Positions 29,352-58,974 of a DNA stretch of 64,000 nt are shown in pieces. The position numbers and the translations under genes were made by a program. The notes beneath the pieces were generated by a model. The model saw nothing but the letters and a program-made list of their open reading frames with translations. It was not told the origin of the DNA and made no database searches. Within the stretch, counting starts at the first letter, position 1; every line of letters starts with the position of its first letter. Source of the DNA: an uncultured Clostridia bacterium (GTDB lineage: Bacteria; Bacillota; Clostridia; Christensenellales; DTU072). The stretch lies in assembly GCA_944349655.1 (NCBI GenBank), contig CALVNL010000001.1:51809-115808 (forward strand), given 5' to 3'.

Positions 29352-30476
29352 TTGCGTTTAATTTCTGTTTTATGCGTAGAAAACGGGCTTATAAGGTTGG
29401 TTTTATCGGAAAGAAGCGAGACCGGCTACGTTTTTTATGCCGAAAACAGCGTTCCTTTTTCCGGGTTCGATAACGAAGGCTTCCGTTCCTCTGAAGAGGT
29501 TTTCGAGAAAATAAGGTCCTTATATGCGGATACCGAAAACAGATACGGTTTGACCGAAGACAGAGCTTTCGTGCTTTTGCCCGGTATTTTTTATAACTAC
29601 GATCTGGTGGAAAACCAAATTCGTATAGACGGAGGGACGGTTACCGAAAAAGACGTGCAAAAGCTTTTGTCTTCCTGCGGCAAGGAAGTGAGAGGCCATC
29701 TTCCCGTAGAACGTACTCCTATTTTTTATAAATCTTTTTATAATCCGATAATGTACGATCCGATAGGGGAAAAGACCGATTCCCTTTACGTTACGGCTTC
29801 TGTGGGTTATCTCAGACCCGCGGTAAAGGAGCTTTTCGACAACTGCGCAAAACGTTGCTTGAAAAATTTCGAATATTGTTCCTTCCCGACTGCCGTAGCT
29901 CACAATGCCGCAAGATTTTTACCCGAAGGGGATAAAATATTCATCGTTTTCGGCAGAGGGCATACCGATATAGCGTCTTGCAGCGGAAAGTCCCCGATTG
30001 CGGTTACATCCCGATTTTTCGGATATAACGACGTTATATATTCCGTAACCGATTTATTGAACTGTACGGACGATTTCGCGGACGGATTGATTATGCAAAG
30101 TAATCTCAATCTGGCGTTTACGCCGGAATTGAAGTATTCCTTCCTCGGCAATCATTTTCCCGTCAGGGAAGTTAATACGAGAATTATAGAAACTTTGCTA
30201 TACATAGCTTCGGTAATTGCCGAAACCGTAAACGCCTATTCGGGAGAAAAAGAAACGCCGGTATATCTGACGGGTTCGGATATCTGTTCGATAAGGGGCG
30301 TAAAGGAAATTTTCGAAGATCAAATCGGAAGAGAAATAGAAATACTCACTTCAGACGCGATAAATTTAGAAGGTTGTAAAAATTTTGCTTTAGCAGGATT
30401 ATGCGATAAAATAAATCGGTCCATAAAACCGAATTTTTGGGAAAAACTGTTAGCTAAGATATACAGGAGGAACTGA
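29352..30476 (+). CDS. FtsA-like actin-fold cell division protein with degenerate nucleotide-binding motifs
   Basis: TTG start, 374 aa. Collinear by eye with B. subtilis FtsA (VPFSGF.. vs VPSEGL.., YLTGS.. vs VLTGG..). C-terminal amphipathic helix NFWEKLLAKIYRR. Sits in the ftsA slot directly before ftsZ. Confidence 0.65.
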   Translation: MRLISVLCVENGLIRLVLSERSETGYVFYAENSVPFSGFDNEGFRSSEEVFEKIRSLYADTENRYGLTEDRAFVLLPGIFYNYDLVENQIRIDGGTVTEKDVQKLLSSCGKEVRGHLPVERTPIFYKSFYNPIMYDPIGEKTDSLYVTASVGYLRPAVKELFDNCAKRCLKNFEYCSFPTAVAHNAARFLPEGDKIFIVFGRGHTDIASCSGKSPIAVTSRFFGYNDVIYSVTDLLNCTDDFADGLIMQSNLNLAFTPELKYSFLGNHFPVREVNTRIIETLLYIASVIAETVNAYSGEKETPVYLTGSDICSIRGVKEIFEDQIGREIEILTSDAINLEGCKNFALAGLCDKINRSIKPNFWEKLLAKIYRRN

Positions 30477-35874: not shown

Positions 35875-36579
35875 TTGCTTTTAGAAGGATTTTTTACTCT
35901 TTTCAGCAATTTGTTGTTATTCACTTCGGGGATAGACGGCGGAAACTCTTTTCCTCATCCGTTAAGTCCCGAAAAGGAAAGGGAATACCTTTACAAATTC
36001 AAAAAAGAAGGGGATCTGGAAGCTAGAAACATTCTTATAAAACACAATCTTCGTCTGGTAGTGTTTATTGCGAAAAAATACGTTAATTATCCCGACAACG
36101 ACGAACTTATCAGTATCGGCACGATAGGACTTATGAAAGCCATCAATTCCTTCGATCCCGACAAGGGGTCGTTGCTTGCCACTTTCGCTTCCCGTTGTAT
36201 CGAAAACGAAATTCTGATGACTATGCGCAGTTACAAGAAAAGAGCGGGCGATATGTCGATATACGAAAGTATCGGAAACGACAAGAACGGCAACGAAATG
36301 CCGATTATCGACATACTGACTACCGACGAAGAAAGCGTTTACTCTCATATCGACTCGGAATTTATGAAAAAAACGCTAAAGGATTTTACTTCGAGATATT
36401 TAAGCGAAAGGGAAAGGGTAATTATAAATTTACGGTTCGGGCTGGAGGGCGGAGTGCCGCTTACGCAACAAAAAGTAGCGGACAGGCTGGGGATTTCGAG
36501 ATCCTACATATCCAGAATAGAAAAAAAGTCGCTGTCTAAACTCCGTGCGGCTTTCGAAAAGGAAAAAATTCAGGTATAA
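35875..36579 (+). CDS. sigK: sporulation sigma factor SigK (pro-sigma-K), uninterrupted
   Basis: TTG start. Pro-sequence ...NSFPHPLSPEKEREYL parallels B. subtilis ...NAFPQPLSSSEEKKYL. Also NLRLVVFIAKKY and CIENEILM. One continuous 234-aa ORF. Confidence 0.9.
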   Translation: MLLEGFFTLFSNLLLFTSGIDGGNSFPHPLSPEKEREYLYKFKKEGDLEARNILIKHNLRLVVFIAKKYVNYPDNDELISIGTIGLMKAINSFDPDKGSLLATFASRCIENEILMTMRSYKKRAGDMSIYESIGNDKNGNEMPIIDILTTDEESVYSHIDSEFMKKTLKDFTSRYLSERERVIINLRFGLEGGVPLTQQKVADRLGISRSYISRIEKKSLSKLRAAFEKEKIQV

Positions 36580-36581
36580 AG

Positions 36582-36907
36582 GGGAGCGAGACGGTCTGTA
36601 AGCCGAGTTCTGTCTTGAACGGCCATCTGTCTAGGCGAACCGTTACCGGAACGCTCAAGCGATTTTGAAACGCGCCGGGCAGGCGTAATCGTTTACTTCT
36701 CTTGCATCGAGCGGGGTTTACACAGCCAATTTCGTTGCCGAACTGCTGGTGCGCTCTTACCGCACCTTTCCATCCTTACGGTCAAAGACCGCGGTTTATT
36801 TCTGTTGCACTATCCTTAAAGTCGCCTTCAGCGGGGGTTACCCGTCGCTCTGCCCTGTGATGCTCGGACTTTCCTCATCTTTCGATGCGGCCGTCCGGCC
36901 GTCTCGC
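36582..36907 (-). ncRNA. rnpB: RNase P RNA, bacterial type A
   Basis: The reverse complement reads GCGAGACGGCC...GATGAGGAAAGTCCGAGC...AGTGCAACAGAAA...GGAAAGGTGCGGTAAGAGCGCACC...GCCTAGACAGATGG...ACAGAACTCGGCTTACAGACCGTCTCGC. The CR-I and CR-V blocks and the P1 pairing are all present, and the E. coli-like GGTGCGGTAAGAGCGCACC block indicates type A. Ends are accurate to a few nt. Confidence 0.9.
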
Positions 36908-36913
36908 AGGATT

Positions 36914-36942
36914 ATATTATCATTAAATCTCTTTTTTTTCAA
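36914..36942 (-). promoter_or_regulatory. sigma-A promoter for rnpB
   Basis: On the minus strand: TTGAAA (36942-36937), 17 nt, TAATAT (36919-36914). The predicted TSS at about 36907 is the first base of the P1 helix. Confidence 0.55.
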
Positions 36943-36999
36943 GTATATTTTTCCCGTGCGGGTAAATAATTCCTGTAAATTATAACCGTGAGGATTATT

Positions 37000-39900
37000 A
37001 TGCCCGTTCTGATAATATTGCTTGTGATAATATTGTTGTGTGCTTTTCTCGCAATGCGGAAAGAAAGGACTGACGTTGCCTATAACCGTATGAGAGAAAG
37101 CGACGAAGAGTCGCTGGGAGCTTTATTGACGGACGAATGCCGTCAGATGCGAAATTACGGAGAAGGGAGAGGAATAAAGCCCGTATTCCTGATTTCGGCC
37201 ATCAAAAAAGCCAATAAAATGATAAACGCCAAAATACGGCGGGAAGAACCGTTAAGCGAAGCCGAAAAGTGGTTTTATGAAAATTATTATCTGGTTTACA
37301 GGTACGTTTATTCGCCAAAAGATGACCTGAAAACGCTTCCGCACGTGGACGGAATTCCTCGAATAGTTAAAATTGCGGAGTATATAGTCAACAACTCGTT
37401 AAACAATTTAACCGAAACGGTAGTAAGAAACGCTTTGGAAAAAATAAAGAGTACGGTAAATCTTACTTATGCGGAATTGAAAGAATTTAACAACGCTTTG
37501 AGCTACGCTGCATTGGAACAGGCTTATATTCTGGCAAAAAGGCTGTTAAAACAGGATTATTACCGAAAGAAAGCTTATAAAGTAGGGTTTCGCGAAAAAT
37601 ATTTGAAAAGCGACGTCTACACTTATTATCTGTTCAGAACGGGAACGGTAAACGGCGCGATAGCAGAAAAGCTCAATCGTCTCGGCATAACCGAAAAAAA
37701 CGCTCTTATAAATTTTAACGGAATAACCGCATATAACGGAGCAATGGCAAAGACCGTATTCGGGTGCCTTCGCAAAATAAACGACTATGTACCTTTGCAT
37801 CTCGGACTGAGGTATCTTGCCTCATACAGAATACTCTCCCGTAAAACCGACCCTGAAAAACTTTCCTTACGCACCCGATTGTCTTATTTCGAAAAATTGG
37901 AAAAAACGGCTGAAAGCACTAAGGTAAGCGAGGCTTACGCCGCCGAAAAACTCTTAGAATACGCCGATAAAAAAGACGTTGACGTATCGGTAGTGCTGTA
38001 TGACGGGATAAAAGGATTAAAAAAATATATCAAAAGGGGAACGGTTTCCGGAAAAACCGTTTTTAACGGTAAACTCAGGCAGACGGCTTACGTCCTTTCA
38101 ATAGTTTTAACGTCGTTGATTTCAAGCGTTATCGCAGGTATTTACGTTCATCCTGCGGTAGGAGTATTCTCGTTTATACCGCTTACGCTCGTTGCGGAAA
38201 ATATAGTGAATTACCTTTTGTCCCATACTGCCGACGATTTTCGCACCCCGCAAATGAATTTTGAAAAAGTGCCGACCGAACATAAAATAATGGTGGTTGT
38301 AAGCGAATTTATCTCGGGATTAGAGCATTTTAAGGAGAGTTTGCGGCATCTGGAGGAGTTAAGCGCGTCGAACGGTGAGGAAAACGTACAGGTGGTTATG
38401 CTTGCCGATATAAAAGGAGGAAAAACGCCTTATTCCGAAGCGGACAGGGAAATACTCGAATTTCTTTCAGACTACCGCCCCGAGGAGAAAATAAACGTAT
38501 TTATACGCAAAAAAGAGTTTATTAACGGAAAATATCAGGGGAAAGAAAGGAAACGCGGTGCGCTCGACGCATTGAATAAATTACTGGTTACGGGCAACGA
38601 AGAGGATTTTGCTTACGTTTACGACCGCAATTACGCCATTCCCGAATATATAGTCGCATTGGACGCCGATAACCGTCTTTTACCGGGTGAAGTGAGAGAA
38701 ATGGCGAATATGATGGCGCACCCTTATAATAAAAAATACGATTTACTAGCTTTTCACAGTAAATATGATCTATATTCGCTGAAAACCGCTTATTCCAAAA
38801 GATTTTCAGAAGAGTCCGGGTGCGAAGTATATCCTTCTTTTACCACGCTTTTCGTAAAACTTTTCCGCAGGGACGTTTATTGCGGGAAAGGAATCTACAG
38901 ACTCAGGAATTTTTACAACAAAACCGCTCAGGTTTTTCCTTCGGGAAAAATACTGTCGCACGACATAATAGAAGGAAGCGTGACGGTAACGGGAGGAGGA
39001 AGCACGGTTTTCGAGGAAGCACCGAAAGGATTTTTGTCAGACAGAGAACGTAGAAAAAGATGGTTGCGAGGCGACGTACAATTACTTCCTTTTGCCGACG
39101 GACGGTGGAAAAACGACGCGTCAAACAAGGTGAGAACGGAGATAGAACCGCTTTACGGATATTTAATGCTAAAAAACGCTTTTGCACCGTTTAAGGAATT
39201 AAGTTTGCTGTTTTTATTGATTTTTTCACTTATAATAGGGCAAACTACCGCTATTGTTTTTTCCGCGGCCCTTTTCATAGCGCCTTACCTTGTGAACCAA
39301 ATAAAGATTTTGCGGGGACTTGCAGGCGGCGTATTACCGTATTATCTTATAAAAGACACTTTGAAAAACGTCTTTTTGGCGGCAGAAGACTTTTTTATGC
39401 TCGGTTACTATGCCTTCGACAATTCTCTTGCCGTGATTACCACGCTCGGGAGAATGTTGAGCGGTAAAAAATTATTGGAATGGAAAACTTATTACAGTTC
39501 TCAATCCGCTGCGGAAATGAGTTCTTATGCGAGGGAATTTACTTTAACTACCGTATTGCTTGCCGTTATATCGATAGTATGGTTGATTTTTGATATCAAA
39601 GGGCTTTATTTATGCTTTTATACCCTTATAACTCCGCTCGTTTATTCGGAATTGTATCTTTTGTCGACTACTTCGTCGGAAAGAAAAACTCTTTCCGAAA
39701 AGAAGACGGAAGACCTTAAGCGATATGCTCAAAGGACTTATAAATTCTTTTCCTATATGCAGAGCGAAGGTTATCTTATAGCCGATAATTTGCAGATTAA
39801 GCCTTATAAAGGCTGCGCTTCGACTACTTCTCCAACCAATATAGGTTTCAGCCTTTTAGCGGAAATTTGCGGCTGTAAACTGGGATTCGTGACGGCAAAC

Positions 39901-42900
39901 GAAGCGTGCCACAATATCAATATGATACTCGACGAAGTAAAAAAACTTCCGCTATGGAAGGGGAATTTATACAATTGGTATAACCTCAATACCAAAAAGC
40001 CGGTCAGCAATTTCATTTCCAGCGTGGACAGTGGAAATTTTGTGGCTTGCTTGTATGCTGTGAAGGAGTTTTTCAAGGAAAACTACGATAAAATAGGGGA
40101 ATTAAAAGCCGACCTTATGATAGTAAACACCGATTTGAAAGCCTTATACGACGAAAACGAAAATCTGTTCTATATAGGTTTCGACGGAGAGAAATACGTC
40201 GGACATTACGACCTGATGAATTCCGAAGCAAGGATATTAAGCACGCTTTATATCGCGCAAAGCCGCGATACGGAACACTTCCGATGCTTGCAAAGGGATT
40301 ACGCTTCCATAGGCGGCAATGTATTGCTGAGCTGGAGCGGGACGGCTTTCGAAGCGTTGATGCCCGATATCTTTTTCCCGACGCCCGAAAAATCGGTATT
40401 CGGAAACACCTCGCTTCGCACGGCAAAAATTCAAAGCCAAACAAAATACTGTTCGCTGTGGGGGATAAGCGAAAGCGGATATTATGCTTTCGACGAAGAG
40501 CTGCGATACCAGTACTACGCTTTCGGAATTAACAAGTTAGCTTTACGCAACGAAAAAAACAAAGGGGTTATAAGTCCCTACGCATCGGCTTTGTGTATCA
40601 ACGAGTTGCCCGAAGAAGTTTACGATAATTTGCATCTTGCCGAACAGAACGGACTATTTCAGGAATACGGTTTTTACGAGAGCGTCGATTGCGAGGGGAA
40701 GCAACGTGTAGTGGCTTCCTATATGGCGCATCATCAAGGAATGTTGCTTGCTTCATTAACTAATTTTCTCGCAGAAAATTATATACAAAAATTGATGTGT
40801 AAAAATCTGAAATTGTCCTCTGCGCTAACAATTTACAACGAAAATGTGCCTCGTGTAGCTTTTGGTTTAAAAAATAATGAAAAGCGTAAAAATATACCTT
40901 TACAGAAAGAGGATTATTATAAAATCAATACTAAAATAGAACAATACTTCCAAACGGGAGTGTTATCGGATACACAATATTCTGTAATACTCAATGCTTT
41001 TGGAGGAGGTTTAAGTAAATATTACGACGTAATTATCAATCGTTTTTTTGGAGTTTATGAAGAAAACGACGGTGCCTTTTTTATGGTTAAAGATAAGGAC
41101 GGTAAGTGGAATTCTCCCACGTTTTTACCTTTCGGCGGGAATACGGAGGACTATGTTTTTTCGATATCGCAGTCTGAAATAATTCACGAAAATATAAAGT
41201 CAAGACTAAAGCAGGAAGTAACCTTACTGGACGGTATGAGCGGCGAAATAAGAAAACTTACCTCGCCCAAAGGAGAAGTTTGTTTCTTTTTACCCCTTGC
41301 ATTGAATACTCTCAACGGGTTCCGTTCACATCCTGCCTTCAACGGTTTGTTTTGCGAAACCTACGTTAAAGACGACGTACTTTACATTAAACGTAGAAAA
41401 ACCGAAAGTGTCGGAAAGGATTTTTATCTCGGCGTAAAGGTTATCGGCGTTGAGAATTTGCAATGGGAAACCAACGCGGGAAATTATCTCGGAAGAGCGT
41501 CTTCTTTAGCCGAAGCCGAGATTCTTTCGGGCAGTAAGAAGAGATATCCGTCGCTTGGAGACGTTCTCAATCCTTGTATAGGTTTCAAAGGACGCACCGA
41601 GGGGGAGTGTCAGGTTGCAATAGTCTTCGGCGAGGAGGAAAACGAATGCGTCGACGCCTTGAAATCGTTGCCCGACGATATGTATTCTTATGCCGTTAAT
41701 TTTATGCATAAAAACGTAATCAATAAAAATACGGGAGACGTTTTGTCGGAACTTCTTTACGTTCCTTACAGACACGATTTGTTGGACGAACTCGTCACTT
41801 CCGGAAAAAAGGATTTATTTGCGCAAAATACTTCATTCCGTAAGCTCATTGTGTATTATTTTAACGAAAGCGGAAAAGGTTTTACGGATTTTCTGAAAGT
41901 TGCTTTGGATCTGAACGTGTTGAGGCAGGACGTTTGTTACGCCGTCGTGGTAGGTAAAGGCCTTCCCGACTCGGTAAGAGCTCACGTCGAGTCTCATCTT
42001 AAAGCCTTCCTCGTTAAAAATTTCCTCATAGTAGGAGAAGATTATCCGCTTCTGAAATACGCTTTTCTGACTTTCAATTCCGATATGACTTTTAATCGGA
42101 GCAAATTTTCTTTCGGGAAGGATTTTCTTTTGAAAAACGAAGAAAGAGCTTGCGTTTTAAGCGAAGACGATTTTTCCGAACAGTTGCACGGAAAAGAATT
42201 ATTCTTTTCGGGCAAAGGCGGTTTCGACGAAAACGACGATTACGTTTCGGACGCGGAATACGACGGTCTGCCTTATTCCGACGTGATTTGTTCCGAACAC
42301 GGCGGAATGGTGATAACCGATAACGGCGGAGGATTTTATTATTTCGGAAATTCTCGCGAAAACAAGATGACGAGATTCGATAACGATTACGTAACAGATT
42401 GCGGAGGGGAATATATTTATCTCAGAACGGACGGGGAGTTGTACCGACTCGGCGGCAGAGGCAAGGACCGTTATTCGGTTTTCGGCAAAGGCGAATATAA
42501 ATTCGTCAGAAAAAACCACCGCTTTTCTGCCGTTTTGAAATACAATACCTTGTGCGAAGGCAGAGCAAGACTTATCAAAGCGGAAATAAACGTAAGCGGA
42601 GACGGACATTTTGAATTGTGTTACGGATTTTTCCCTGCGCTTAATTGGGTTTATGAGCCTGATTTCATATATTTCAAGCAGGAAAACGAGGTTATCACGG
42701 TGCACAACGTCAGGAACGGACAAACGCTTTACGTTAAAATGATGACGACAAAACCCGAAAATCTGTCTTTCATCAATCCGAAAGAAAGGCAACCTTATTT
42801 TGAATATTTCGGCGAAGGCAAAGAAGAAATATATATTCTTTCCACGCAGGATTACGGAGTGTTGCATTCCGTGACGAGGGAAAACGTTTCAATGCTTGCC

Positions 42901-44397
42901 GAAAGAGATAAAATCAATATTTCTTACGCTTCAGCTTTCGACATAGCTTCTCCCGTAAGAAGTTTCAATATATTGGTAAGAAATCTTCCTTATCAGATAC
43001 TTTCGTCCCGAATTTACGGTAAGACAGGTTTTTATCAAGTCGGGGGAGCTACGGGTTTCAGGGATCAACTACAGGACGTAACGGCATTTTTACAAAGCCG
43101 CCCCGATATGGTAAGACGGCAGATTCTCTACTCCGCGGCAAGACAATATGCAGAAGGCGACGTAATGCACTGGTGGCATCATCCGAAATTCGGATTACGT
43201 TCCCGTATTACCGACGATAAGCTTTTCCTGCCTTTAGTGGCGTCCGAATATGCTTCTTTTACAGGCGATAAAGAGATTTTTTCGGAAATTATTCCTTATC
43301 TCGATTCTCCGAAACTTTCCGATAACGAAAAGTCCCGTTTTGAGAATCCGCCTTATTCCGAACGGAGAGGAACGTTGGAAGAACACTGCATTCTTGCAAT
43401 AAAAAGCGCTTTAAGTTACGGAAAACACGGACTTTTGGTAATGGGGAGCGGAGACTGGAACGACGGAATGGACGAAATTTGTGCCGAAGGCAGAGGCGAA
43501 AGCGTTTTTAATTCGATGCTTGCGTATCTCACTATCAAGAAGTTTTTGCCTTATTGTCACGATAAAGCGTCGGAACTGGACAGAATAGCCGAAGAACTTA
43601 AATCGGCGGTGAATACCTTTGCTTTCGAAACGGACAGGTATAAGCGACTATACAGCGACGACGGCAGATGGCTTGGGGCAAAAGGTTGTGATACGCTTGA
43701 ACTGGATTTGCTCGTTCAAAGTTTTGCCGTCATAAGCGGTGTTGCGGAAGGAGAGAGAGCGGAAACCGTTTTAGACGTATGTCGTTCGCTGATAGACGAA
43801 AAAGCCGGAATTATCCGTTTACTCGATCCTCCGTCGGATAAAAACGATTATCTCGGCTATATCTCGGCTTACCCGAAAGGAGTCAGAGAAAACGGAGGAC
43901 AATATACCCATGCTGCTATGTGGTATCTCATTGCGCTGACGCATATCGGCAGGCAGGAAGAAGCGTTCCGACTTTTTCAGATGATAAATCCCGTTGAAAA
44001 GTGCCGTGATAAGGAAAAATCGGCTCGATATATGGGAGAACCTTTCGTGCTGAGCGGCGACGTCTATTTTAATAAAGACAACTACGGCAGAATGGGATGG
44101 AGTTGGTACACCGGAAGCGCCGCCTGGGCGTTCCGACTCATAACGGAAAACTTTTTCGGTATACGCAGACAGGGGGAATATCTTACGATAAAGCCTTCTT
44201 TACCGAGAGCTTTGGACGGGACCGTGATAACTTACAGGTATGCCGACAGCGTGTATCTGATAGAATACCGAATAGGCGATAAAAACCTTATTACCGTGGA
44301 CGGGGTGGAACAAAACGCCTTCCGCTTCAAACTTGAAAAAAACAAGAGAGAAAAAATAGTAGTGGAGACCCTTCCCGAAAAACTTTCCGCCGAATGA
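37000..44397 (+). CDS. cyclic beta-1,2-glucan synthase-like multidomain protein (TM + GT84-like + glucanase-like alpha-barrel + GH94-like phosphorylase)
   Basis: 2,465 codons from ATG 37000 (GAGGA SD 5 nt upstream; the track uses GTG 36988). GT84-type motifs: LDADN (38659-38673), SHDIIEG (38956-38976), RWLRGDVQ (39058-39081). Middle module: TSPTNIGF, SSVDSGNF, WGISESGYY, YMAHHQGM. C-terminal GH94-type motifs: FRDQLQD (43057-43077), HWWHH (43168-43182), GSGDWNDGMD (43444-43473), ENGGQYTHAAMW (43888-43923). Multiple TM segments flank the GT module. Confidence 0.85.
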   Translation: MPVLIILLVIILLCAFLAMRKERTDVAYNRMRESDEESLGALLTDECRQMRNYGEGRGIKPVFLISAIKKANKMINAKIRREEPLSEAEKWFYENYYLVYRYVYSPKDDLKTLPHVDGIPRIVKIAEYIVNNSLNNLTETVVRNALEKIKSTVNLTYAELKEFNNALSYAALEQAYILAKRLLKQDYYRKKAYKVGFREKYLKSDVYTYYLFRTGTVNGAIAEKLNRLGITEKNALINFNGITAYNGAMAKTVFGCLRKINDYVPLHLGLRYLASYRILSRKTDPEKLSLRTRLSYFEKLEKTAESTKVSEAYAAEKLLEYADKKDVDVSVVLYDGIKGLKKYIKRGTVSGKTVFNGKLRQTAYVLSIVLTSLISSVIAGIYVHPAVGVFSFIPLTLVAENIVNYLLSHTADDFRTPQMNFEKVPTEHKIMVVVSEFISGLEHFKESLRHLEELSASNGEENVQVVMLADIKGGKTPYSEADREILEFLSDYRPEEKINVFIRKKEFINGKYQGKERKRGALDALNKLLVTGNEEDFAYVYDRNYAIPEYIVALDADNRLLPGEVREMANMMAHPYNKKYDLLAFHSKYDLYSLKTAYSKRFSEESGCEVYPSFTTLFVKLFRRDVYCGKGIYRLRNFYNKTAQVFPSGKILSHDIIEGSVTVTGGGSTVFEEAPKGFLSDRERRKRWLRGDVQLLPFADGRWKNDASNKVRTEIEPLYGYLMLKNAFAPFKELSLLFLLIFSLIIGQTTAIVFSAALFIAPYLVNQIKILRGLAGGVLPYYLIKDTLKNVFLAAEDFFMLGYYAFDNSLAVITTLGRMLSGKKLLEWKTYYSSQSAAEMSSYAREFTLTTVLLAVISIVWLIFDIKGLYLCFYTLITPLVYSELYLLSTTSSERKTLSEKKTEDLKRYAQRTYKFFSYMQSEGYLIADNLQIKPYKGCASTTSPTNIGFSLLAEICGCKLGFVTANEACHNINMILDEVKKLPLWKGNLYNWYNLNTKKPVSNFISSVDSGNFVACLYAVKEFFKENYDKIGELKADLMIVNTDLKALYDENENLFYIGFDGEKYVGHYDLMNSEARILSTLYIAQSRDTEHFRCLQRDYASIGGNVLLSWSGTAFEALMPDIFFPTPEKSVFGNTSLRTAKIQSQTKYCSLWGISESGYYAFDEELRYQYYAFGINKLALRNEKNKGVISPYASALCINELPEEVYDNLHLAEQNGLFQEYGFYESVDCEGKQRVVASYMAHHQGMLLASLTNFLAENYIQKLMCKNLKLSSALTIYNENVPRVAFGLKNNEKRKNIPLQKEDYYKINTKIEQYFQTGVLSDTQYSVILNAFGGGLSKYYDVIINRFFGVYEENDGAFFMVKDKDGKWNSPTFLPFGGNTEDYVFSISQSEIIHENIKSRLKQEVTLLDGMSGEIRKLTSPKGEVCFFLPLALNTLNGFRSHPAFNGLFCETYVKDDVLYIKRRKTESVGKDFYLGVKVIGVENLQWETNAGNYLGRASSLAEAEILSGSKKRYPSLGDVLNPCIGFKGRTEGECQVAIVFGEEENECVDALKSLPDDMYSYAVNFMHKNVINKNTGDVLSELLYVPYRHDLLDELVTSGKKDLFAQNTSFRKLIVYYFNESGKGFTDFLKVALDLNVLRQDVCYAVVVGKGLPDSVRAHVESHLKAFLVKNFLIVGEDYPLLKYAFLTFNSDMTFNRSKFSFGKDFLLKNEERACVLSEDDFSEQLHGKELFFSGKGGFDENDDYVSDAEYDGLPYSDVICSEHGGMVITDNGGGFYYFGNSRENKMTRFDNDYVTDCGGEYIYLRTDGELYRLGGRGKDRYSVFGKGEYKFVRKNHRFSAVLKYNTLCEGRARLIKAEINVSGDGHFELCYGFFPALNWVYEPDFIYFKQENEVITVHNVRNGQTLYVKMMTTKPENLSFINPKERQPYFEYFGEGKEEIYILSTQDYGVLHSVTRENVSMLAERDKINISYASAFDIASPVRSFNILVRNLPYQILSSRIYGKTGFYQVGGATGFRDQLQDVTAFLQSRPDMVRRQILYSAARQYAEGDVMHWWHHPKFGLRSRITDDKLFLPLVASEYASFTGDKEIFSEIIPYLDSPKLSDNEKSRFENPPYSERRGTLEEHCILAIKSALSYGKHGLLVMGSGDWNDGMDEICAEGRGESVFNSMLAYLTIKKFLPYCHDKASELDRIAEELKSAVNTFAFETDRYKRLYSDDGRWLGAKGCDTLELDLLVQSFAVISGVAEGERAETVLDVCRSLIDEKAGIIRLLDPPSDKNDYLGYISAYPKGVRENGGQYTHAAMWYLIALTHIGRQEEAFRLFQMINPVEKCRDKEKSARYMGEPFVLSGDVYFNKDNYGRMGWSWYTGSAAWAFRLITENFFGIRRQGEYLTIKPSLPRALDGTVITYRYADSVYLIEYRIGDKNLITVDGVEQNAFRFKLEKNKREKIVVETLPEKLSAE

Positions 44398-44435: not shown

Positions 44436-44464
44436 TTGACTTTATCGGATAATGTAATTATTAT
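44436..44464 (+). promoter_or_regulatory. sigma-A promoter abutting the rarA ATG
   Basis: TTGACT (44436-44441), 17 nt, TATTAT (44459-44464). The ATG at 44471 is 6 nt downstream and there is no SD. Confidence 0.5.
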
Positions 44465-44470
44465 ATAGAT

Positions 44471-45745
44471 ATGGATTTATTCGATATGAATCGCACGTCC
44501 AACGCTCCGCTTGCGGAAAGAATGAGGTGCGAGGAACTGAAAGATTTTATCGGACAGGAACATCTGGTGGGGGAAGGGTGCCTTTTACGCAGGGCTATTA
44601 TTGCCGACAGGCTGGGAAGCTGTATTTTTTACGGACCGCCGGGGACAGGCAAAACCACTCTCGCTCACATTATCGCCAATGCCACAAAATCCAACTACGT
44701 TTATCTGAACGCAGTCAGCAGCGGAGTCGCCGAAGCGAAAGACGTAATCGAAAAAGCAAAAAAAGAACTGGCTTTTTACGGTAGAAAAACTTATTTGCTT
44801 TTAGACGAATGTCACCGCTGGAACAAAGCTCAGTCCGACTGCGTGTTGGGCGCTATGGAAAAAGGCGAAATAATTTTTATAGGAAGCACTACCGAAAATC
44901 CTTATGTAAGTATGACGAGAGCGATCGTTTCGCGTTGCAGGATATTTTCTTTCCGTCCGCTTACCTCCGATAATATAAAACAAGGTATCGCCAGAGCTTT
45001 ACGCGACAAAACCAACGGTTTGGGAAATTACGACGTCGTTATCGACGATGACGCGATAAATCAGTTCGTTTACGCGTCCAACGGCGATATGCGGGTTGCG
45101 CTCAATTCCTTGGAGCTTGCCGTATTGAGTACGCCTTCGGACAAAGACGGCAAAATCACCGTAACGAAGGATATAGCGGCGCAATCCACGCAAAAACCGG
45201 TTATATCTTTGGATGAGTCGGCTTATTACGATATTATCAGCGCATTTTGTAAATCTTTACGAGGAAGCGATCCCGACGCGGCGATATATTACGCAATGCG
45301 TCTTATTACCGCAGGAGCGGATCCGATGCTGGTATGTCGCAGGCTTATAGTTCATTCCGCCGAAGACGTGGGACTTGCCGACCCCATGGCGTTGAATATT
45401 GCCGTAAACGCTACGCTTGCCATGGAAAGGCTGGGGCTTCCCGAAGGGCGTATTCCGCTTACCGAGGCTATTATATACGTTTGTAAGGCGCCTAAGTCCA
45501 ACAGCGTGGTAAACGCTTTGTATTCGGCTGTCGCAAAAGCAGAGGAAGGACACGACGAAGTCCCGACTTATTTAAGAGACAATCACTACCGCTCGGACAA
45601 GGATACGTCATACAAATATCCGCACGATTACGGCGGTTATGTCGAACAGCAATATTTGCCCGACGATATAAAAAACGAAAAATTTTACATACCCGGAGAA
45701 AACGGGGAAGAAAAAAATTATAAAAATTTATGGAGGATAACATGA
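44471..45745 (+). CDS. rarA: replication-associated recombination protein A (MgsA/RarA AAA+ ATPase)
   Basis: Walker [12 protein letters not shown], Walker [12 protein letters not shown], and an MgsA C-terminal region with [13 protein letters not shown]. Confidence 0.9.
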
Positions 45746-46278
45746 AAGAACTCAAAGGAAGTCAAACCGAAAAAAATCTGTGGACGGCGTTTGCCGGGGA
45801 AAGCCAGGCTCGTAACAAATACGATTATTTTGCGTCCAGAGCAAAAAAAGACGGATATGAACAAATAGCCGCATTTTTTGCAGAAACCGCAAATAACGAA
45901 AAAGAACACGCCAAAATATGGTTCAAACTCTTACAGGGCATTAACGGAACCGAACAGAATCTTTCCGACGCCGCAGCAGGCGAAAACTACGAATGGACGG
46001 ATATGTACGCCGGATTTGCAAAGGTTGCAAGGGAAGAAGGTTTCGATTACATAGCCGAACTTTTCGAAGGCGTAGCCGCTATCGAAAAAGATCACGAGGA
46101 AAGATATAAGAAGTTACTTTCCAACATCAAAGACGGCAGCGTATTCGTAAGAAACGGAAAACTCGCCTGGAAATGCCGTAACTGCGGCAACGTCGTATAT
46201 GCCGACGCCGCTCCCGAAGTTTGTCCCGTTTGCTCTCATCCCAGAGCTTATTACGAAATCAAATCCGAAAATTATTGA
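45742..46278 (+). CDS. rbr: rubrerythrin
   Basis: Ferritin-like diiron ExxH motifs (NEKEH, IEKDHEE) and a C-terminal rubredoxin CRNCG...CPVC. ATG 45742 has a GGAGG SD and an ATGA overlap with rarA. Confidence 0.9.
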
Positions 46279-46332: not shown

Positions 46333-47070
46333 ATGATAGAAATTAAAAATCTTACAAAATGCTATGCAAAATCCTCCGTTAAAGCGGTGGAGGATTTAAC
46401 CTTGACCGTGAAAGAAGGTGAAATATACGGTTTTCTCGGACCGAACGGGGCGGGAAAATCCACCACCATAAAATGTTTGACGGGGATACTTCCTTTTACC
46501 GAAGGAAGCATCCATATATGCGGGGTCAATCTTAAAGAATGTCCCGTGGAAGCGAAAACTCATATAGGATTTGTACCCGACGAACACGTTTTATACGAAT
46601 CTTTGACGGGATTTCAATATATAGAATTTATTGCGGACGTTTTTAACGTGCCTGTCGATAAAAGAAAAGAACTACTGGAAAAATACGCCGCGTCTTTCGG
46701 GATGAGCGATAAGCTCCAGGACAAAATTTCATCGTATTCACACGGAATGAAGCAAAAAATAAGCATAATTTCCGCATTGATACACGAGCCTGACGTACTT
46801 ATATTAGACGAACCGATGACGGGACTCGACCCTAAGTCCAGTTTTGAACTGAAACAGATTATGAAAGAATATGCCGAGCAAGGAAAGACGGTTTTCTTTT
46901 CCTCGCACGTACTGGAAGTAGTGGAAAAAATCTGCACGTCAATTGCCATTATAAATAAAGGAAAGCTGGTTACCGAATTCAGTATTCACGAATTACAGGA
47001 GAAAAAAGCCGATACCAATTTAGAAGAATTTTTCCTGAAACTAACATCGGACGGTGAGGGCAATGAGTAA
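46333..47070 (+). CDS. ABC transporter ATP-binding protein
   Basis: Walker A GPNGAGKST, signature-like YSHGMKQK, Walker B VLILDEP. Confidence 0.9.
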   Translation: MIEIKNLTKCYAKSSVKAVEDLTLTVKEGEIYGFLGPNGAGKSTTIKCLTGILPFTEGSIHICGVNLKECPVEAKTHIGFVPDEHVLYESLTGFQYIEFIADVFNVPVDKRKELLEKYAASFGMSDKLQDKISSYSHGMKQKISIISALIHEPDVLILDEPMTGLDPKSSFELKQIMKEYAEQGKTVFFSSHVLEVVEKICTSIAIINKGKLVTEFSIHELQEKKADTNLEEFFLKLTSDGEGNE

Positions 47071-48790
47071 AATAAAACTGTATTTTACTTTACTTAAGAC
47101 GTGCGGTGTGGACGCGCTTACCTTGGTAGGGAAATATTACGGCTTCAAAAACAGATCTAAATCGAGTGAAAAAGCCTCCTCTATGTCCGTTGCAAAAAAG
47201 ACGGCTTTGATAGCAGGAGCGGGACTTTTGGTTCTGATAATACTTTTTTACCTTGCTTTCAGCGTATTTAATTCCGCGGTATTGTCTTATTCTGCGGGAG
47301 TTCACGTGGAATTTTTATACAGTATTCTTTTCTTCGTGCAGCTAATAATATTGTTTTTTGGCGCGGCGACTACGATAAATTATCTTTATTACGGAAAAGA
47401 TAACTCTTTACTGCAGTCTTTACCCGTATCTTCGGGAATGATTTTCTCGGTAAAATTTACGCTTTCATATTTAGGAGAACTGATAATTTCCTTTCTTACC
47501 GCTTTACCTTGTCTGGTTGCTTACGGAATAGGCGTCACTATGGCGGGCGGCTCGATAGAATGGAGTTTTTATCTACTGAGCGTTATAGGGGTGTTTTTGC
47601 TGCCGATATTTCCATTGCTTATTATAAGCATAATTTCTATACCGCTTATGTATCTGGTCAGCATGATGCGAAACCGTACTTTGGGTAAAACGCTAATAAT
47701 GGCCGTAACGGTGGCTCTTTTCCTGGCATTGTACTTTATTATAATATTCGGTGCTATGCCCGCATCCGACGGAGAGGAAACTTTTCTTTCACAGGGTTTT
47801 ATTTCAGGTATTCAAAATATAGCGGCAATCGGAATTTACAATTACGGTTTCGTAAACGCCTTACTTAATAATAACGCTTTCGTTAATATTATTATTTATC
47901 TGGCCGGGTTGATAGGTATATTTGCACTCGGCGTGATATTAAGCTTGCTTTTTTATGCTAAAGGAATTTCTTTCGTTGCGGAATCTTCTTCAGCAGGAAC
48001 CAAAAGGAAAAAAAGCGGCCGTACCGATTATGCTACCTCTTCTTTTATAAAAAGCTTTGCGAGAAAGGAGATAAAAACCATTTTGGGAACGCCCGCCCTT
48101 CTTTTAAGTTGCATTATGGGATTTATACTGTTGCCCGCCATTATAATTTTTTACGGTAAACTCGGTATGATGGACTTCGGAGGAGAGCCGGTTGCTCCTG
48201 CGGCAGGGTTTGTCGGGTTCGTTTGCTTTTTTGCGTCGATTATGCTTTCGTCAACCAATTATATTTCGTTGGTAGGGTTTTCGATGGAGGGAAAAAATAT
48301 CAATATACTGAAATCTTTGCCCATTGTTCCGAGAGACATAATAAAAGTAAAATTGCTTATCGCCGTAGTAATCAATTTAATAATGGCGGTAGTCGTTACG
48401 ATAGCTTGTATTATAGCTGTTTCGGTAGACAGATGGGTCGCGTTTTGTATGCTGCCTATATTTGCGGTAAACGGATTTGCTTCCGCGGCTATGGGGCTTT
48501 ACAACGATTTGAAAAATCCTAATTATAAATTCGTAAATATCAACGAACTTACCAAAAATAACAAAAAAGCAGTTAAACCTATGCTCTTGAATATGTTTGT
48601 CGGAATAATATATTTTGTTGAAGGAATGATTTTCTCGATGGTTCCGTCTATAGGTGAGGCGTTAGGGAAAGGCGGCGTTTATGCGGTATTGTTCTTATCC
48701 ATATTGGTTATAAACCTTATATTGCTGGCGGCGGTTTTGCCTAAACTCAATAAGAACGCAGAGGAGTATTTCTACAGGACGGAGGTGTAA
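47063..48790 (+). CDS. polytopic ABC exporter permease-like membrane protein
   Basis: About 575 aa with many hydrophobic segments. Overlaps the ATPase gene stop. The family assignment is not certain. Confidence 0.65.
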   Translation: MSKIKLYFTLLKTCGVDALTLVGKYYGFKNRSKSSEKASSMSVAKKTALIAGAGLLVLIILFYLAFSVFNSAVLSYSAGVHVEFLYSILFFVQLIILFFGAATTINYLYYGKDNSLLQSLPVSSGMIFSVKFTLSYLGELIISFLTALPCLVAYGIGVTMAGGSIEWSFYLLSVIGVFLLPIFPLLIISIISIPLMYLVSMMRNRTLGKTLIMAVTVALFLALYFIIIFGAMPASDGEETFLSQGFISGIQNIAAIGIYNYGFVNALLNNNAFVNIIIYLAGLIGIFALGVILSLLFYAKGISFVAESSSAGTKRKKSGRTDYATSSFIKSFARKEIKTILGTPALLLSCIMGFILLPAIIIFYGKLGMMDFGGEPVAPAAGFVGFVCFFASIMLSSTNYISLVGFSMEGKNINILKSLPIVPRDIIKVKLLIAVVINLIMAVVVTIACIIAVSVDRWVAFCMLPIFAVNGFASAAMGLYNDLKNPNYKFVNINELTKNNKKAVKPMLLNMFVGIIYFVEGMIFSMVPSIGEALGKGGVYAVLFLSILVINLILLAAVLPKLNKNAEEYFYRTEV

Positions 48791-56424: not shown

Positions 56425-57440
56425 AAAAAGTAATTTACTTAAAGAATAAACCCATAGGGGACGGAAAAATAACAATACAGAGTATGACAAATACTCCTAC
56501 TTGTGACGCTGAAAAAACCTTGTCGCAGATTAACGCGCTTGCGGAAGCGGGGGCGGACTTCGTAAGAGTATCGGTGCCAGATCTTGCTTCTGCAGACGCA
56601 GTTAAAGAAATTTGTCTTAAGTCGCCCCTCCCCGTAATAGGGGATATACATTTTGCGTATGAACCCGCCTTGAGGGCAATAGAAAACGGAATTGCAAAAA
56701 TTCGCATAAATCCGTCAAATATGCCCGAAAAAGGATTAAAAGCCGTTGTCAGAATGTGTGCCGAGTATAAAGTGCCGATCAGAGTCGGAGTAAATAAGGG
56801 CTCGGTAAAGAAGAACGTTACTCCGCAGGAACTGGTATCATTGACGTTGGACGCGGCAAAGAAGATAGAAGATTTAGGATGGGATCGGCTGGTGCTTGCC
56901 GTTAAGACGAGCGATCCGTCCGAAACCGTTAAAGCATACCGATTACTTTATGAAAAGACCGATTATCCTTTACATATCGGACTTACCGAAGCCGGTACTC
57001 CGAAATACGGATTACTAAAATCCGCAATTTCCATAGGCTCTTTGCTTATAGACGGCATAGGCGATACCGTACGAGTCAGTCTGACAGGCGACCCCATCCA
57101 GGAAATATATGCAGCAAAAGACCTTCTCATAGCTTGCGGCATAGAAAAAAATTTTGTCGACGTTATCAGCTGTCCTACCTGTGCGAGAACGGAAATAGAC
57201 GTGGAAAATTTGGCTTTAAGAATTCAAAAATTAACTTCCAAAATAAAAAAATCGTTGAAAATTGCCGTAATGGGATGCGTGGTAAACGGAATAGGCGAAG
57301 GGAAATCTGCCGATTTCGGCGTAGCCGGAGGAAAGAAGAAATCCATAATTTTCGCTAAAGGCGACATTTTGAAAACCGTTCCCAACGAAGAAATAGAAAG
57401 CGCCCTTATTGGACTTATCGAGGAGTATGCAGATGAATAA
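56421..57440 (+). CDS. ispG: 4-hydroxy-3-methylbut-2-en-1-yl diphosphate synthase
   Basis: TIQSMTNT, RINPSN, CPTCART, MGCVVNGIGEG. Confidence 0.95.
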   Translation: MKKVIYLKNKPIGDGKITIQSMTNTPTCDAEKTLSQINALAEAGADFVRVSVPDLASADAVKEICLKSPLPVIGDIHFAYEPALRAIENGIAKIRINPSNMPEKGLKAVVRMCAEYKVPIRVGVNKGSVKKNVTPQELVSLTLDAAKKIEDLGWDRLVLAVKTSDPSETVKAYRLLYEKTDYPLHIGLTEAGTPKYGLLKSAISIGSLLIDGIGDTVRVSLTGDPIQEIYAAKDLLIACGIEKNFVDVISCPTCARTEIDVENLALRIQKLTSKIKKSLKIAVMGCVVNGIGEGKSADFGVAGGKKKSIIFAKGDILKTVPNEEIESALIGLIEEYADE

Positions 57441-58974
57441 AACGCCTTTTATGGTTCAGCTCGAAGAAAAATTGCGCCCGGAGGAAAGAATTTTCAAATT
57501 CCGTTCCGCAGAACTCAGCGGAAAATATTTTACGTTGGAATTACTTGTTAATCATTCTTCTTACGATAAGGTACTGGACGACGGATTAAAAGACAAGGTG
57601 CTTGCCGCCGCCAAAGAAATAGTCCCTTCTTCTTTGATAAGCAAGATAAAATACGTAAAAGCGTCCACCGACGCCGATTCTGTAATCAGATATATCATCG
57701 AATACGTATTCAAATCAAATCCTTCGCTTTATCAGCAATTCAGCGAATCGGCCATTGACGTAAAAATAGAAAAGGATACTTTGTTTGTAAGCATAACGTT
57801 GGAAAAATTCCTCTACGAATATGCGGTAAAAAGTTCTTTGAAAGAGCAACTGGAAAATTACCTGGAAAAACGCGTAATGGAAGACGTAACGGTAGAAATT
57901 TATCAGGTTCCTAATTCCGAAGAGGAGACGGAACCTGTATTTCGCGCAGTGAACAAGACCGCATTGATCAGGACGGTGGAAGTCAACGTGGAAAAGTTCT
58001 TCTGCGGAAATTCCGCTCAACTTCCCAGATATATCTGCGACGTAAAAGGGAAAGAAGCCTCCGACGTTTGTCTTTGCGGAATTATTTCCAACGTAAAACG
58101 CAAGTATATCGAAAAATTAGATAAAGACCTCTATACTTTCCTTATAAACGATACTACGGGCAGTATTAAGGTAAAATATTTCGAGAAAAAAATCAAAAAC
58201 GTAAACTGGCAGGAAGTTTTTACAGAAGGTAAAACGCTCATAATGCAAGGTCAGATTAAGTTTGACACGTTCGATAGCGAGTATGAATTTTCTCCGAGAT
58301 CGATAGCCGAAGGTACTGTGGATTACAGCAGTATCAATATCAAGAGCGATTATCATACCGAACCTGCTCAATATATCCACGTTTTTCCTCAAAAAATAAC
58401 AGAAGGAGAACAAAACAACTTTTTTGCCGAAGAACTCAATCCCGAATTCAAGGACAAAGTTTTTGTGGTATTCGATCTGGAAACTACCGGAACCGACCCC
58501 GTAAACGATAGAATTATCGAAGTTTGCGGTGTCAAATTGATAAACGGAGAAATTTGTGAGAGTTTTCATACGTTGGTGGATCCGCAGATGCCTATTCCGG
58601 TGCAAGCGAGCGAAGTTAACCATATTACCGACGATATGGTGGCCGGACAGTTTACAGTGGAAGAAATATTGGGGGATTTCTATAAATTTACAAGGGGTAC
58701 TATTCTCGTTGCGCAAAACGCACCGTTCGATATGGGGTTTTTGAGAGTGAACGGAAACAAATACAAATACGATTTCGATAACAGTTTTGCCGATACTTTG
58801 GTTATGGCGAGGCGATTGCTCAACCTTAAGAAAAACGATCTCGGTTCGCTTTGCAAGTATTTTAATATAAATCTGACGGGGGCGCACAGAGCTTTGAACG
58901 ATGCGGTGGCGACGGCAAAACTTTTCGTCAAGCTGATGAATATGGAATATTCCAAAAACAAAAAAAATGCTTGA
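57433..58974 (+). CDS. PolC-derived protein: PolC-like N-terminal domain + OB fold + DEDDh 3'-5' exonuclease, with no PHP or polymerase modules
   Basis: 513 codons from ATG 57433 (GAGGAG SD 7 nt upstream). The OB region LYTFLINDTTGSIKVKYFEK...GKTLIMQGQIKFDTF parallels PolC LCIFKITDYTNSILIKMFAR...GMWVKARGSIQNDTF. Exo I FVVFDLETTG (58465-58494), Exo II AQNAPFDMGFL (58711-58743, a PolC-type signature), and Exo III HRALNDA (58885-58905). Confidence 0.75.
   Translation: MNKTPFMVQLEEKLRPEERIFKFRSAELSGKYFTLELLVNHSSYDKVLDDGLKDKVLAAAKEIVPSSLISKIKYVKASTDADSVIRYIIEYVFKSNPSLYQQFSESAIDVKIEKDTLFVSITLEKFLYEYAVKSSLKEQLENYLEKRVMEDVTVEIYQVPNSEEETEPVFRAVNKTALIRTVEVNVEKFFCGNSAQLPRYICDVKGKEASDVCLCGIISNVKRKYIEKLDKDLYTFLINDTTGSIKVKYFEKKIKNVNWQEVFTEGKTLIMQGQIKFDTFDSEYEFSPRSIAEGTVDYSSINIKSDYHTEPAQYIHVFPQKITEGEQNNFFAEELNPEFKDKVFVVFDLETTGTDPVNDRIIEVCGVKLINGEICESFHTLVDPQMPIPVQASEVNHITDDMVAGQFTVEEILGDFYKFTRGTILVAQNAPFDMGFLRVNGNKYKYDFDNSFADTLVMARRLLNLKKNDLGSLCKYFNINLTGAHRALNDAVATAKLFVKLMNMEYSKNKKNA

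Follow-up and report, generated by a model that had tools for sequence, protein, structure and literature searches.

The DNA analysed here is a stretch of 64,000 nucleotides from an uncultured Clostridia bacterium (contig CALVNL010000001.1 of assembly GCA_944349655.1), called the window in the following, and its most conspicuous gene is a very long open reading frame (ORF) at 37000-44397 (+), which encodes 2465 amino acids and is named cgs here after the synthases of cyclic beta-1,2-glucan (Cgs). The original prediction had described one 7.4-kb ORF joining transmembrane (TM), GT84, cyclization and GH94 parts, and a phmmer search against PDB sequences bears this out: the protein matches the cryo-EM structure of Agrobacterium tumefaciens (At) Cgs (8RF0/8RF9) over its full length with an E-value of 2e-193, in four stretches that follow each other in the same order (residues 222-1024, 1043-1531, 1734-1815 and 1962-2409), and also the crystal structure of the cyclization domain from Thermoanaerobacter italicus (Ti; 8WY1, E 4.6e-68). 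The longest possible frame opens with a GTG at 36988; the ATG at 37000 is likely to be the translation start instead, because a GAGGA ribosome-binding site can be read at 36990-36994 (+), 5 nt before it, and because the same hydrophobic N-terminus is found in all close relatives. The exact protein is present in NCBI, ENA and Logan assemblies, and its cluster at 90% identity or more counts 37 members, of which the complete listed ones are each 2465 aa long and three are fragments of 429, 565 and 1875 aa. Across relatives ranging from 99% down to 43% identity the length stays within 2457-2466 aa, and over this range both length and sequence show clear purifying conservation.

Starting from the N-terminus, the protein carries an extra TM anchor (residues 1-20, 37000-37059 (+)), with a hydropathy peak of 3.2 and a helix at residues 2-17 in the AlphaFold2 (AF2) model, followed by RKER; hydropathy and model both recover, as a TM-like anchor, the N-terminal TM segments that had been proposed. 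There follow an all-helical scaffold, the N-terminal domain (NTD; residues ~21-357, 37060-38070 (+)), modelled with a pLDDT mostly of 80-94 and superposing on Cgs; TM hairpin 1-2 (residues ~358-408, 38071-38223 (+); model helices 358-382 and 385-408); the GT84 glycosyltransferase domain (residues ~409-716, 38224-39147 (+)), aligned residue by residue to At Cgs; an interface region with TM helices 3-6 (residues ~717-890, 39148-39669 (+); helices 717-772, 780-821, 840-864 and 868-890); the cyclization domain CY, with a GH189 (alpha/alpha)6 fold (residues ~891-1290, 39670-40869 (+)); the N-terminal half of the GP domain (residues 1291-1979, 40870-42936 (+)), composed of a GP1 beta-sandwich (~1309-1544), a Rossmann-fold-like (RFL) insert (~1576-1720) and a GP2 beta-sandwich (~1735-1949); and finally the GH94 catalytic (alpha/alpha)6 phosphorylase domain (residues ~1979-2465, 42934-44394 (+)). 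By hydropathy, which also served to place both internal TM regions, TM-like segments lie at residues 1-20, ~361-403, ~727-768 and ~844-877, that is, three hydrophobic hairpins at the places expected for the six Cgs TM helices plus one added N-terminal helix. The positive-inside rule would put the N-terminus outside, and the RKER side and all the catalytic domains in the cytoplasm.

The individual modules were assigned by different routes. Pfam identifies the GH94 catalytic domain (PF17167, residues 1979-2387, E 6e-82), the GH94 supersandwich in the N-terminal half of GP (PF06165, E 6e-26) and a glycoamylase/GH144-like domain (PF10091, residues 1108-1268, E 8e-15) inside CY, and the GP domain of At Cgs matches the window protein with 358 bits. 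The alpha-barrel glucanase-like module of the original prediction turns out to be the cyclization domain, as the 8WY1 match and the catalytic residues mapped below both indicate, and its statement that a new GH family had been founded on the T. italicus enzyme is correct, the family being GH189 (PMC10834661). Concerning profile searches, which the prediction had expected to recover both GT84 and GH94, only GH94 was retrieved: the sole Pfam match to the glycosyltransferase is GT2 (PF13632, E 0.0012, below threshold), and NCBIfam gives a weak match to MdoH/OpgH (E 9.5e-4; 17 bits, with the cutoff at 419). Since neither Pfam nor NCBIfam holds any GT84 model, residue alignment and fold comparison with the founding member were used instead; residues 222-1024 match the GT84-containing half of A. 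tumefaciens Cgs with an i-E of 3e-43.

All eleven motifs quoted by the original prediction were found in the translation at the places expected: LDADN (residues 554-558), SHDIIEG (653-659) and RWLRGD (687-692) in GT84; TSPTNIGF (943-950), SSVDSGNF (1007-1014), WGISES (1154-1159) and YMAHHQGM (1241-1248) in CY; and RDQLQD (2021-2026), HWWHH (2057-2061), GDWNDGMD (2151-2158) and ENGGQYTHAAMW (2297-2308) in the phosphorylase. To place the functional residues we used the index of the 8RF0 chain, which equals native At numbering, and that of 8WY1, to which 1003 has to be added to obtain TiCGS numbering, both offsets being checked against residues named in the papers; the roles of the GT84 residues are those described for At Cgs (PMC10901819) and the roles of the CY residues those described for TiCGS (PMC10834661). 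Every one of the 19 mapped positions is present in the window protein. In GT84, the UDP-coordinating Asp (At D527) corresponds to D470, R586 to R517, the DxD pair D624/D626 to D555/D557, the autoglucosylated primer Tyr of the IF1h loop (Y694) to Y611 (nt 38830-38832), the catalytic base of SHD (D739) to D655 and R773-W-x-R776 to R687-W688-x-R690. In CY, At S1101/D1104 correspond to S1007/D1010, the acid/base (At E1300, Ti E1356) to E1076 (nt 40225-40227), Ti E1400 to E1118, the nucleophile (Ti E1442) to E1158 (nt 40471-40473) and Ti H1536/H1537 to H1244/H1245. In GP, At D2393 corresponds to D2022 and the catalytic acid of DWND (At D2528) to D2155 (nt 43462-43464).

We also evaluated how constant these positions are in two independent MAFFT alignments, each comprising 34 Cgs-like proteins that represent Bacillota, Bacteroidota, Acidobacteriota, Proteobacteria and further groups. 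D555, D557, Y611, D655, R687 and W688 are invariant in both, as is the GH189 set (E1158, E1076, E1118 and H1244/H1245) across 34 sequences; D470 is replaced by Ala and R690 by Lys in two of 34 sequences each, in one of the two alignments, and the column of At S1101 varies among S, T and A. The two GP residues, D2022 and D2155, are conserved wherever a sequence covers their columns, which one truncated ORF does not. The original prediction was to be abandoned if DADN and DWND fell out of register with the known catalytic positions; both align with them, the DWND Asp with catalytic D2528, and with the catalytic residues conserved none of the outcomes it had named as damaging, as far as they can be computed, was obtained.

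The predicted folds agree with this assignment. The AF2 model of residues 1-1200 (pLDDT 84, pTM 0.80) shows, in this order, the N-terminal helix, the all-helical NTD, a TM hairpin, an alpha/beta glycosyltransferase, TM helices and the beginning of the CY barrel, and the loop carrying Y611 (608-615) is the sole loop of low pLDDT within the glycosyltransferase domain. Compared by Foldseek, this part retrieves the three Cgs cryo-EM entries at the top (TM-score 0.82-0.83, E about 1e-43), which together with the aligned residues upholds the GT84 reading; TiCGS-Cy, beta-1,2-glucanases and BcsA-type synthases come after them. Residues 1291-1990 are the least conserved part of the protein, with ~15% identity to other Cgs, and the middle of GP is ~90 aa shorter, which had suggested a loss of the RFL subdomain specific to Cgs (At 1847-2012). 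This loss was ruled out by model and Foldseek: the AF2 model of this part (pLDDT 88.4, pTM 0.88) has a beta-sandwich, a Rossmann-like beta-alpha unit and a second beta-sandwich, the beta-alpha-beta-alpha-beta-alpha-beta unit being located at residues ~1615-1717 between the two sandwiches, and Foldseek gives a TM-score of 0.77-0.80 to Cgs versus 0.55 to LpSOGP, a stand-alone beta-1,2-oligoglucan phosphorylase without this insert, so that in the predicted structure the RFL subdomain is retained.

The gene lies where the original prediction had set it, between sigK/rnpB and rarA. Upstream is sigK (35875-36579 (+); NF004471, 268.9 bits against a cutoff of 252), then rnpB, the class A RNase P RNA gene, divergent from cgs (36583-36906 (-); Rfam RF00010, 265 bits), and downstream is rarA/mgsA (44471-45745 (+); PF12002, E 3e-58). 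As a side observation, the rarA ORF measures 424 aa from its first ATG, and most members of its cluster have 419 aa; this ATG follows the end of a sigma-70-like promoter, TTGACT-17-TATTAT (44436-44464), by only 7 nt, and for these two reasons the true start is probably the ATG five codons downstream, at about 44486. The whole window is core genome. Its order begins with der, spoIVA, hflX, the SRP RNA, tig-clpP-clpX, the dcw cluster, spoIIGA-sigE-sigG, ylmC/ymxH and nrdR, continues with a pseudouridine synthase, sigK, rnpB (-), cgs, rarA, rubrerythrin, an ABC pair and ruvX, and ends with rpsB-tsf-pyrH-frr-uppS-cdsA-dxr-rseP-ispG followed by nusA-infB.

The order sigK-rnpB(-)-cgs-rarA is kept in every relative examined (loci are labelled L in the following), down to ~34% Cgs identity. 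It is the same in L081, with a Cgs 45% identical, in L003 (34-38%) and in L002, L087, L089 and L091; sigK is syntenic in L003, L081, L082, L084 and L085, with a shorter sigma-like call in L083, and the six relatives scanned all have rnpB pointing away from cgs. When contigs were chosen by their RarA orthologue (69-75% identity), without regard to Cgs, all four carried a Cgs of 2436-2464 aa directly upstream of rarA. Since the synteny holds in every relative examined, it argues that cgs is an old, vertically inherited core gene of the lineage and not an island. A horizontal acquisition was considered and rejected, as the GC content of the gene (0.41-0.44) equals that of its flanks and the synteny extends to ~34% Cgs identity. 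The nearest named relatives are metagenome-assembled genomes (MAGs) labelled 'Clostridia/Clostridiales bacterium', an 'uncultured Christensenella sp.' MAG and Ca. Stercoripulliclostridium (Bacillota; Clostridia; incertae sedis).

Two other places of the same window deserve mention as observations on their own. At the usual Firmicutes site of polC (rseP-ispG-[polC]-rimP-nusA-infB) there is only a 521-aa ORF (57409-58974 (+)) that combines an OB-fold with a DEDDh exonuclease; its match to the PolC model covers positions 408-590 only (177 bits, cutoff 873), the site has no polymerase part, and a 517-aa gene begins at the same place in L081. Between ftsQ (POTRA) and ftsZ, where ftsA is expected, lies a 374-aa ORF (29352-30476 (+)) with no Pfam match at E <= 0.01, whose syntenic gene in L081 has no Pfam family on record either; it is possibly a very divergent FtsA/actin-like protein.

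A genome scan for Cgs matched at least 600 stretches, and 599 of the 600 listed code for a relative of the query. Some 16 of the 80 best loci bear a Clostridia, Bacillota or Bacilli label, with Paenibacillus, Salipaludibacillus, Caloramator and Oscillibacter among them, and the rest belong to Planctomycetota, Acidobacteriota, Chloroflexota, Bacteroidota, Bdellovibrionota and others. Cgs homologues being so widespread in Bacillota, the presence of one in the window is not surprising in itself, nor is a Cgs in a Firmicute new; the enzyme family, its mechanism and its occurrence in Firmicutes are already documented. In the searchable literature, GT84 in Firmicutes was found only as entries in CAZy count tables. 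A 2025 review (PMC11842490, section 11) calls T. italicus 'a Gram-negative bacterium' although it belongs to Bacillota, and this labelling may have obscured that a Cgs of Firmicute lineage was already in the literature.

Within this family the window protein falls in a deep and compact subfamily. On conserved columns the window clade (the window, P0002-P0009, then L003/P0010 and L001) forms a cluster of its own, and the protein is ~370-440 aa shorter than a typical Cgs (2840-2930 aa), nearly every module being compact. The sole large deletion falls after residue 1031 in CY, where the window has 19 residues against 146 in At Cgs (1118 to 1264) and ~170 in the Ti chain; of the four-helix insert itself, a typical but non-catalytic element, canonical Cgs have 139-206 residues, the window clade none and the other short forms examined 0-15. 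The insert is also absent in Caloramator (L063), in several Clostridia MAGs and in the alphaproteobacterium L059, and the idea that its deletion is an innovation of the window clade was rejected on account of this same absence in other short Cgs. The N-terminal TM anchor is common to the whole window clade and to several other Clostridia Cgs, and was absent from the Gram-negative, Bacilli and some other Bacillota Cgs examined. By sequence comparison the window Cgs adds a divergent, compact new member to a known family, within a separate subfamily.

Taken together, the same-order homology, the functional residues, the predicted folds, the conservation and the synteny make it very probable that the window protein is a functional Cgs. 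By homology to A. tumefaciens Cgs and TiCGS, seven TM helices would hold it in the membrane, six of them canonical and one the N-terminal anchor, with its catalytic domains on the cytoplasmic face. GT84 would autoglucosylate Tyr611, on a flexible IF1h-like loop, using UDP-glucose, and would extend this primer from UDP-glucose as a beta-1,2 chain, which would lie on the GP1/RFL/GP2 surface. GH94, with D2155 as catalytic acid, would trim the non-reducing end by phosphorolysis and thereby set the chain length, and the GH189 CY domain (nucleophile E1158, acid/base E1076) would carry out an intramolecular, anomer-retaining transglycosylation that releases cyclic beta-1,2-glucan and regenerates the Tyr-linked primer. 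In Cgs this product, made from UDP-glucose, has a DP of about 17-25. The activity, ring size, membrane orientation and product fate of the window Cgs are all things that we infer in this way.

Several points weigh against this assignment and have to be set beside it. The window clade is only ~25-28% identical to all other Cgs, whether from Bacillota or from Gram-negative bacteria, and this value drops to 15-18% in the NTD and the middle of GP. The CY domain lacks ~120 aa, corresponding to the four-helix insert that forms the back-to-back Cgs dimer in Agrobacterium (PMC10901819), and for this reason ring size, oligomeric state and regulation may differ from those of the Agrobacterium enzyme. 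Experimental work on Bacillota Cgs is confined to the Cy domain of T. italicus, assayed in isolation from the full-length protein. Finally, no exporter of the fused ABC_membrane plus ABC_tran type (ChvA/NdvA/Cgt) was found within the 64-kb window, so that the statement of the original prediction, which concerned the adjacent genes, holds for the entire stretch; with no ChvA/Cgt nearby and in a monoderm without periplasm, the physiological logic of the proteobacterial system does not carry over.

The export question is relevant since the TM domain of At Cgs has no channel, its domains are cytoplasmic and its product needs the ABC exporter Cgt/ChvA (PMC10901819). A product released by the window enzyme would need an exporter other than ChvA/Cgt at the locus, or would else stay intracellular. 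Fused ABC_membrane plus ABC_tran exporters occur within a few kb of Cgs in L013, L025, L035, L062 and L075, which are Gram-negative loci of Planctomycetota and Acidobacteriota, and this suggests that the Cgs/ChvA-type pairing reaches far outside Alphaproteobacteria; beside Cgs in the Bacillota loci examined, no such fused exporter occurs. When the ChvA-like proteins of the Gram-negative loci were used as queries, they matched in the window only the nucleotide-binding domain of its single ABC ATPase. This ATPase belongs to the only transporter near cgs, situated two to three genes downstream, an ABC-2-type pair (46333-48790 (+); PF00005, with DrrA/GldA-like NCBIfam matches below cutoff) made of a DrrA/GldA-like ATPase (46333-47070 (+)) with a degenerate signature, YSHGMKQ, and of a 578-aa permease (47054-48790 (+)), whose gene overlaps that of the ATPase, with ~12-14 TM helices and a sub-threshold match to PF16949; its orthologues match PF09847 and PF16949, both uncharacterised families.

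The ATPase has a homologue downstream of rarA in seven of the eight lineages first compared, with the permease confirmed in five, and the pair is also found in L087, L089 and L091; it is absent in L081, which keeps cgs-rarA-ruvX. A metagenome scan with the permease alignment returned 11 loci only, the close homologues all being in the same syntenic block. No permease homologue was found near cgs in the non-syntenic Bacillota Cgs loci, and where the pair has distant homologues (L092, L095, L096), the 7-10 kb upstream of them contain no Cgs. Concerning a specific coupling of the pair with Cgs, this distribution leans against it, and the pair would be a candidate exporter at best. Between rarA and the pair lies a rubrerythrin gene (45730-46278 (+); NF045767, 253 bits), which is present in the window, L002, L084, L085 and L088 and absent in L003, L081, L082, L087, L089 and L091, a small presence/absence polymorphism in an otherwise rigid syntenic block.

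The 93-nt spacer between rnpB and cgs (36907-36999) was searched for promoters. It contains the rnpB promoter on the opposite strand (TTGAAA-17-TG-n-TAATAT, with an extended -10, 36942-36914 (-)), and the promoter scan found none of sigma-70 type for cgs on the + strand of this spacer. The + strand carries a conserved CAAGTATA with TAAATAAT 15 nt later; L082 and L091 have this same box at the same distance, and L083 and L089 have boxes of the CATACTT type. Stated more generally, GTATA-N15-18 followed by TAAATAAT, CATACTT, CAATACT or CAATAAT lies upstream of cgs in the window, L081, L082, L083/L087, L089 and L091, and is missing there in L084 and L003. The arrangement resembles the pattern of sigmaG-type (forespore) promoters, GHATR / CAHWHTA, and it may be an alternative-sigma promoter of cgs or a part of the rnpB promoter, a lead only. 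Since it overlaps the rnpB -35 and is not universal, no sigma factor was assigned to cgs. The sequence downstream of cgs offers no convincing terminator, its only candidate being a weak hairpin (-6 kcal/mol, z = -0.5) that lacks a T-run.

Which product the enzyme makes and where this product goes can be read in other ways, and the observations above bear differently on each. An enzyme that makes or remodels linear beta-1,2-glucan, or another product, with CY working mainly by intermolecular transglycosylation or hydrolysis, would fit the absence of the four-helix insert and the high sequence divergence, and on the same side it counts that no role has been assigned to the Agrobacterium dimer. 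However, all the catalytic and pKa-tuning residues of GH189 are conserved, the insert is missing in many other Cgs too, the alphaproteobacterial L059 among them, and what the cyclisation cycle requires, namely primer Tyr, RFL subdomain and GP landscape, is still in place, so that we consider a linear product very unlikely. Still less credit, close to none, is given to a catabolic protein using its GH94 and GH144-like modules on imported beta-1,2-glucan, or to a decaying relic: stand-alone GH94 SOGP and GH144 SGL are indeed catabolic and are used by Firmicutes such as Listeria and Lachnoclostridium (PMC3960220), but here the GT84 active site and the primer Tyr are intact, the architecture is membrane-anchored, no sugar importer or beta-glucosidase was found near cgs, and length and sequence are kept by purifying conservation at 43-99% identity.

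If the protein is taken as a Cgs making cyclic glucan, two proposals concern the fate of the product. The ABC-2 pair could export it to the wall zone or the medium in place of a ChvA/Cgt-type exporter. ABC-2 transporters include the glycan exporters Wzm/Wzt, TagGH and KpsMT, the pair is the sole transporter near cgs, the ATPase has a homologue, in the order cgs-rarA-(rubrerythrin)-ABC-permease-ruvX, in those seven of eight lineages and in the three further loci, and fused ChvA-like exporters adjoin Cgs in Gram-negative loci and in none of the Bacillota ones. Yet rarA, and often rubrerythrin too, stands between the pair and cgs, L081 does without the pair, the permease matches only uncharacterised families, and neither the non-syntenic Bacillota Cgs loci nor the distant pairs show the two together; moreover, since the whole region is syntenic in the clade, the adjacency carries little information, and export by this pair appears improbable. 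The other proposal puts cgs under a forespore-type (sigmaF/sigmaG-like) promoter, the glucan being not secreted and serving as an intracellular osmolyte or protectant in the spore or sporangium. It can draw on the missing sigma-70-type promoter and the recurrent GTATA arrangement upstream of cgs in relatives, on the neighbourhood of cgs, which adjoins sigK and is near spoIIGA-sigE-sigG, and on the release of the Cgs product into the cytoplasm (PMC10901819). Against it, 'CAA' in CAAGTATA complements the rnpB -35 element, which makes it possible that the motif is part of the divergent rnpB promoter, the arrangement is lacking in L084 and L003, the -10-like box of the window does not start with C, nearness to sigma-factor genes is no evidence of regulation, and many non-sporulating phyla have Cgs; we thus regard it as unlikely.

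A Cgs in this lineage bears on the usual picture of these glucans. Cyclic beta-1,2-glucans are known almost wholly from Alphaproteobacteria, as periplasmic osmoprotectants and virulence or symbiosis factors exported by ChvA/Cgt. The window adds a complete Cgs, with all the mapped catalytic residues, as a fixed core gene in a gut-associated Clostridia lineage with sporulation genes. Cgs is common across Bacillota and many other phyla, and the ChvA-type exporter is missing at the Bacillota loci examined, which poses a concrete and testable question. It is conceivable, though with a low probability in our judgement, that in this lineage, which has a full set of sporulation sigma factors, the cyclic glucan of an ancient core Cgs serves a role specific to monoderms, either kept as an osmolyte or protectant inside the cytoplasm or forespore, with cgs under a promoter of sporulation type, or exported through the ABC-2 pair; if this were true, both the route, be it export or retention, and the function would be without precedent among cyclic beta-1,2-glucans, beyond their periplasmic and host-interaction role. 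The compact protein of 2465 aa, having no dimerisation insert, may also be of use as a simpler scaffold when cyclic-glucan synthesis is studied structurally or for biotechnology. The finding adds to known biology without overturning it.

Compared with the known systems, the window Cgs shares with that of A. tumefaciens the domain order (NTD, TM, GT84, TM, CY, GP1-RFL-GP2-GP3), all the experimentally defined residues and, in the predicted folds, TM-scores of 0.77-0.83. It differs in being ~366 aa shorter and ~25% identical overall, in lacking the CY four-helix insert and having an additional N-terminal TM helix, and in its host, a monoderm Clostridia with sporulation genes and no ChvA/Cgt exporter at the locus. 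With TiCGS of T. italicus, the founder of GH189 (8WY1), it has in common the Bacillota/Clostridia origin and the conserved E1356, E1400, E1442 and H1536/H1537, whereas TiCGS has ~170 residues between SVDSGN and FLYD (chain 143-312) and the window 19. Stand-alone SOGP resembles its last part in the GH94 supersandwich, the (alpha/alpha)6 catalytic fold and the catalytic Asp; unlike the window protein, SOGP is soluble, stand-alone and catabolic, without the Rossmann-like insert, GT84 or CY. The BcsA-type GT2 synthases (cellulose synthase, 4P00 and 4HG6) share a GT-A fold under TM helices and the D, DxD, D, RW residues, with a weak structural match (Foldseek TM-score 0.27-0.30); in contrast to BcsA, the TM bundle of Cgs forms no translocation channel and its product is released to the cytoplasm (PMC10901819).

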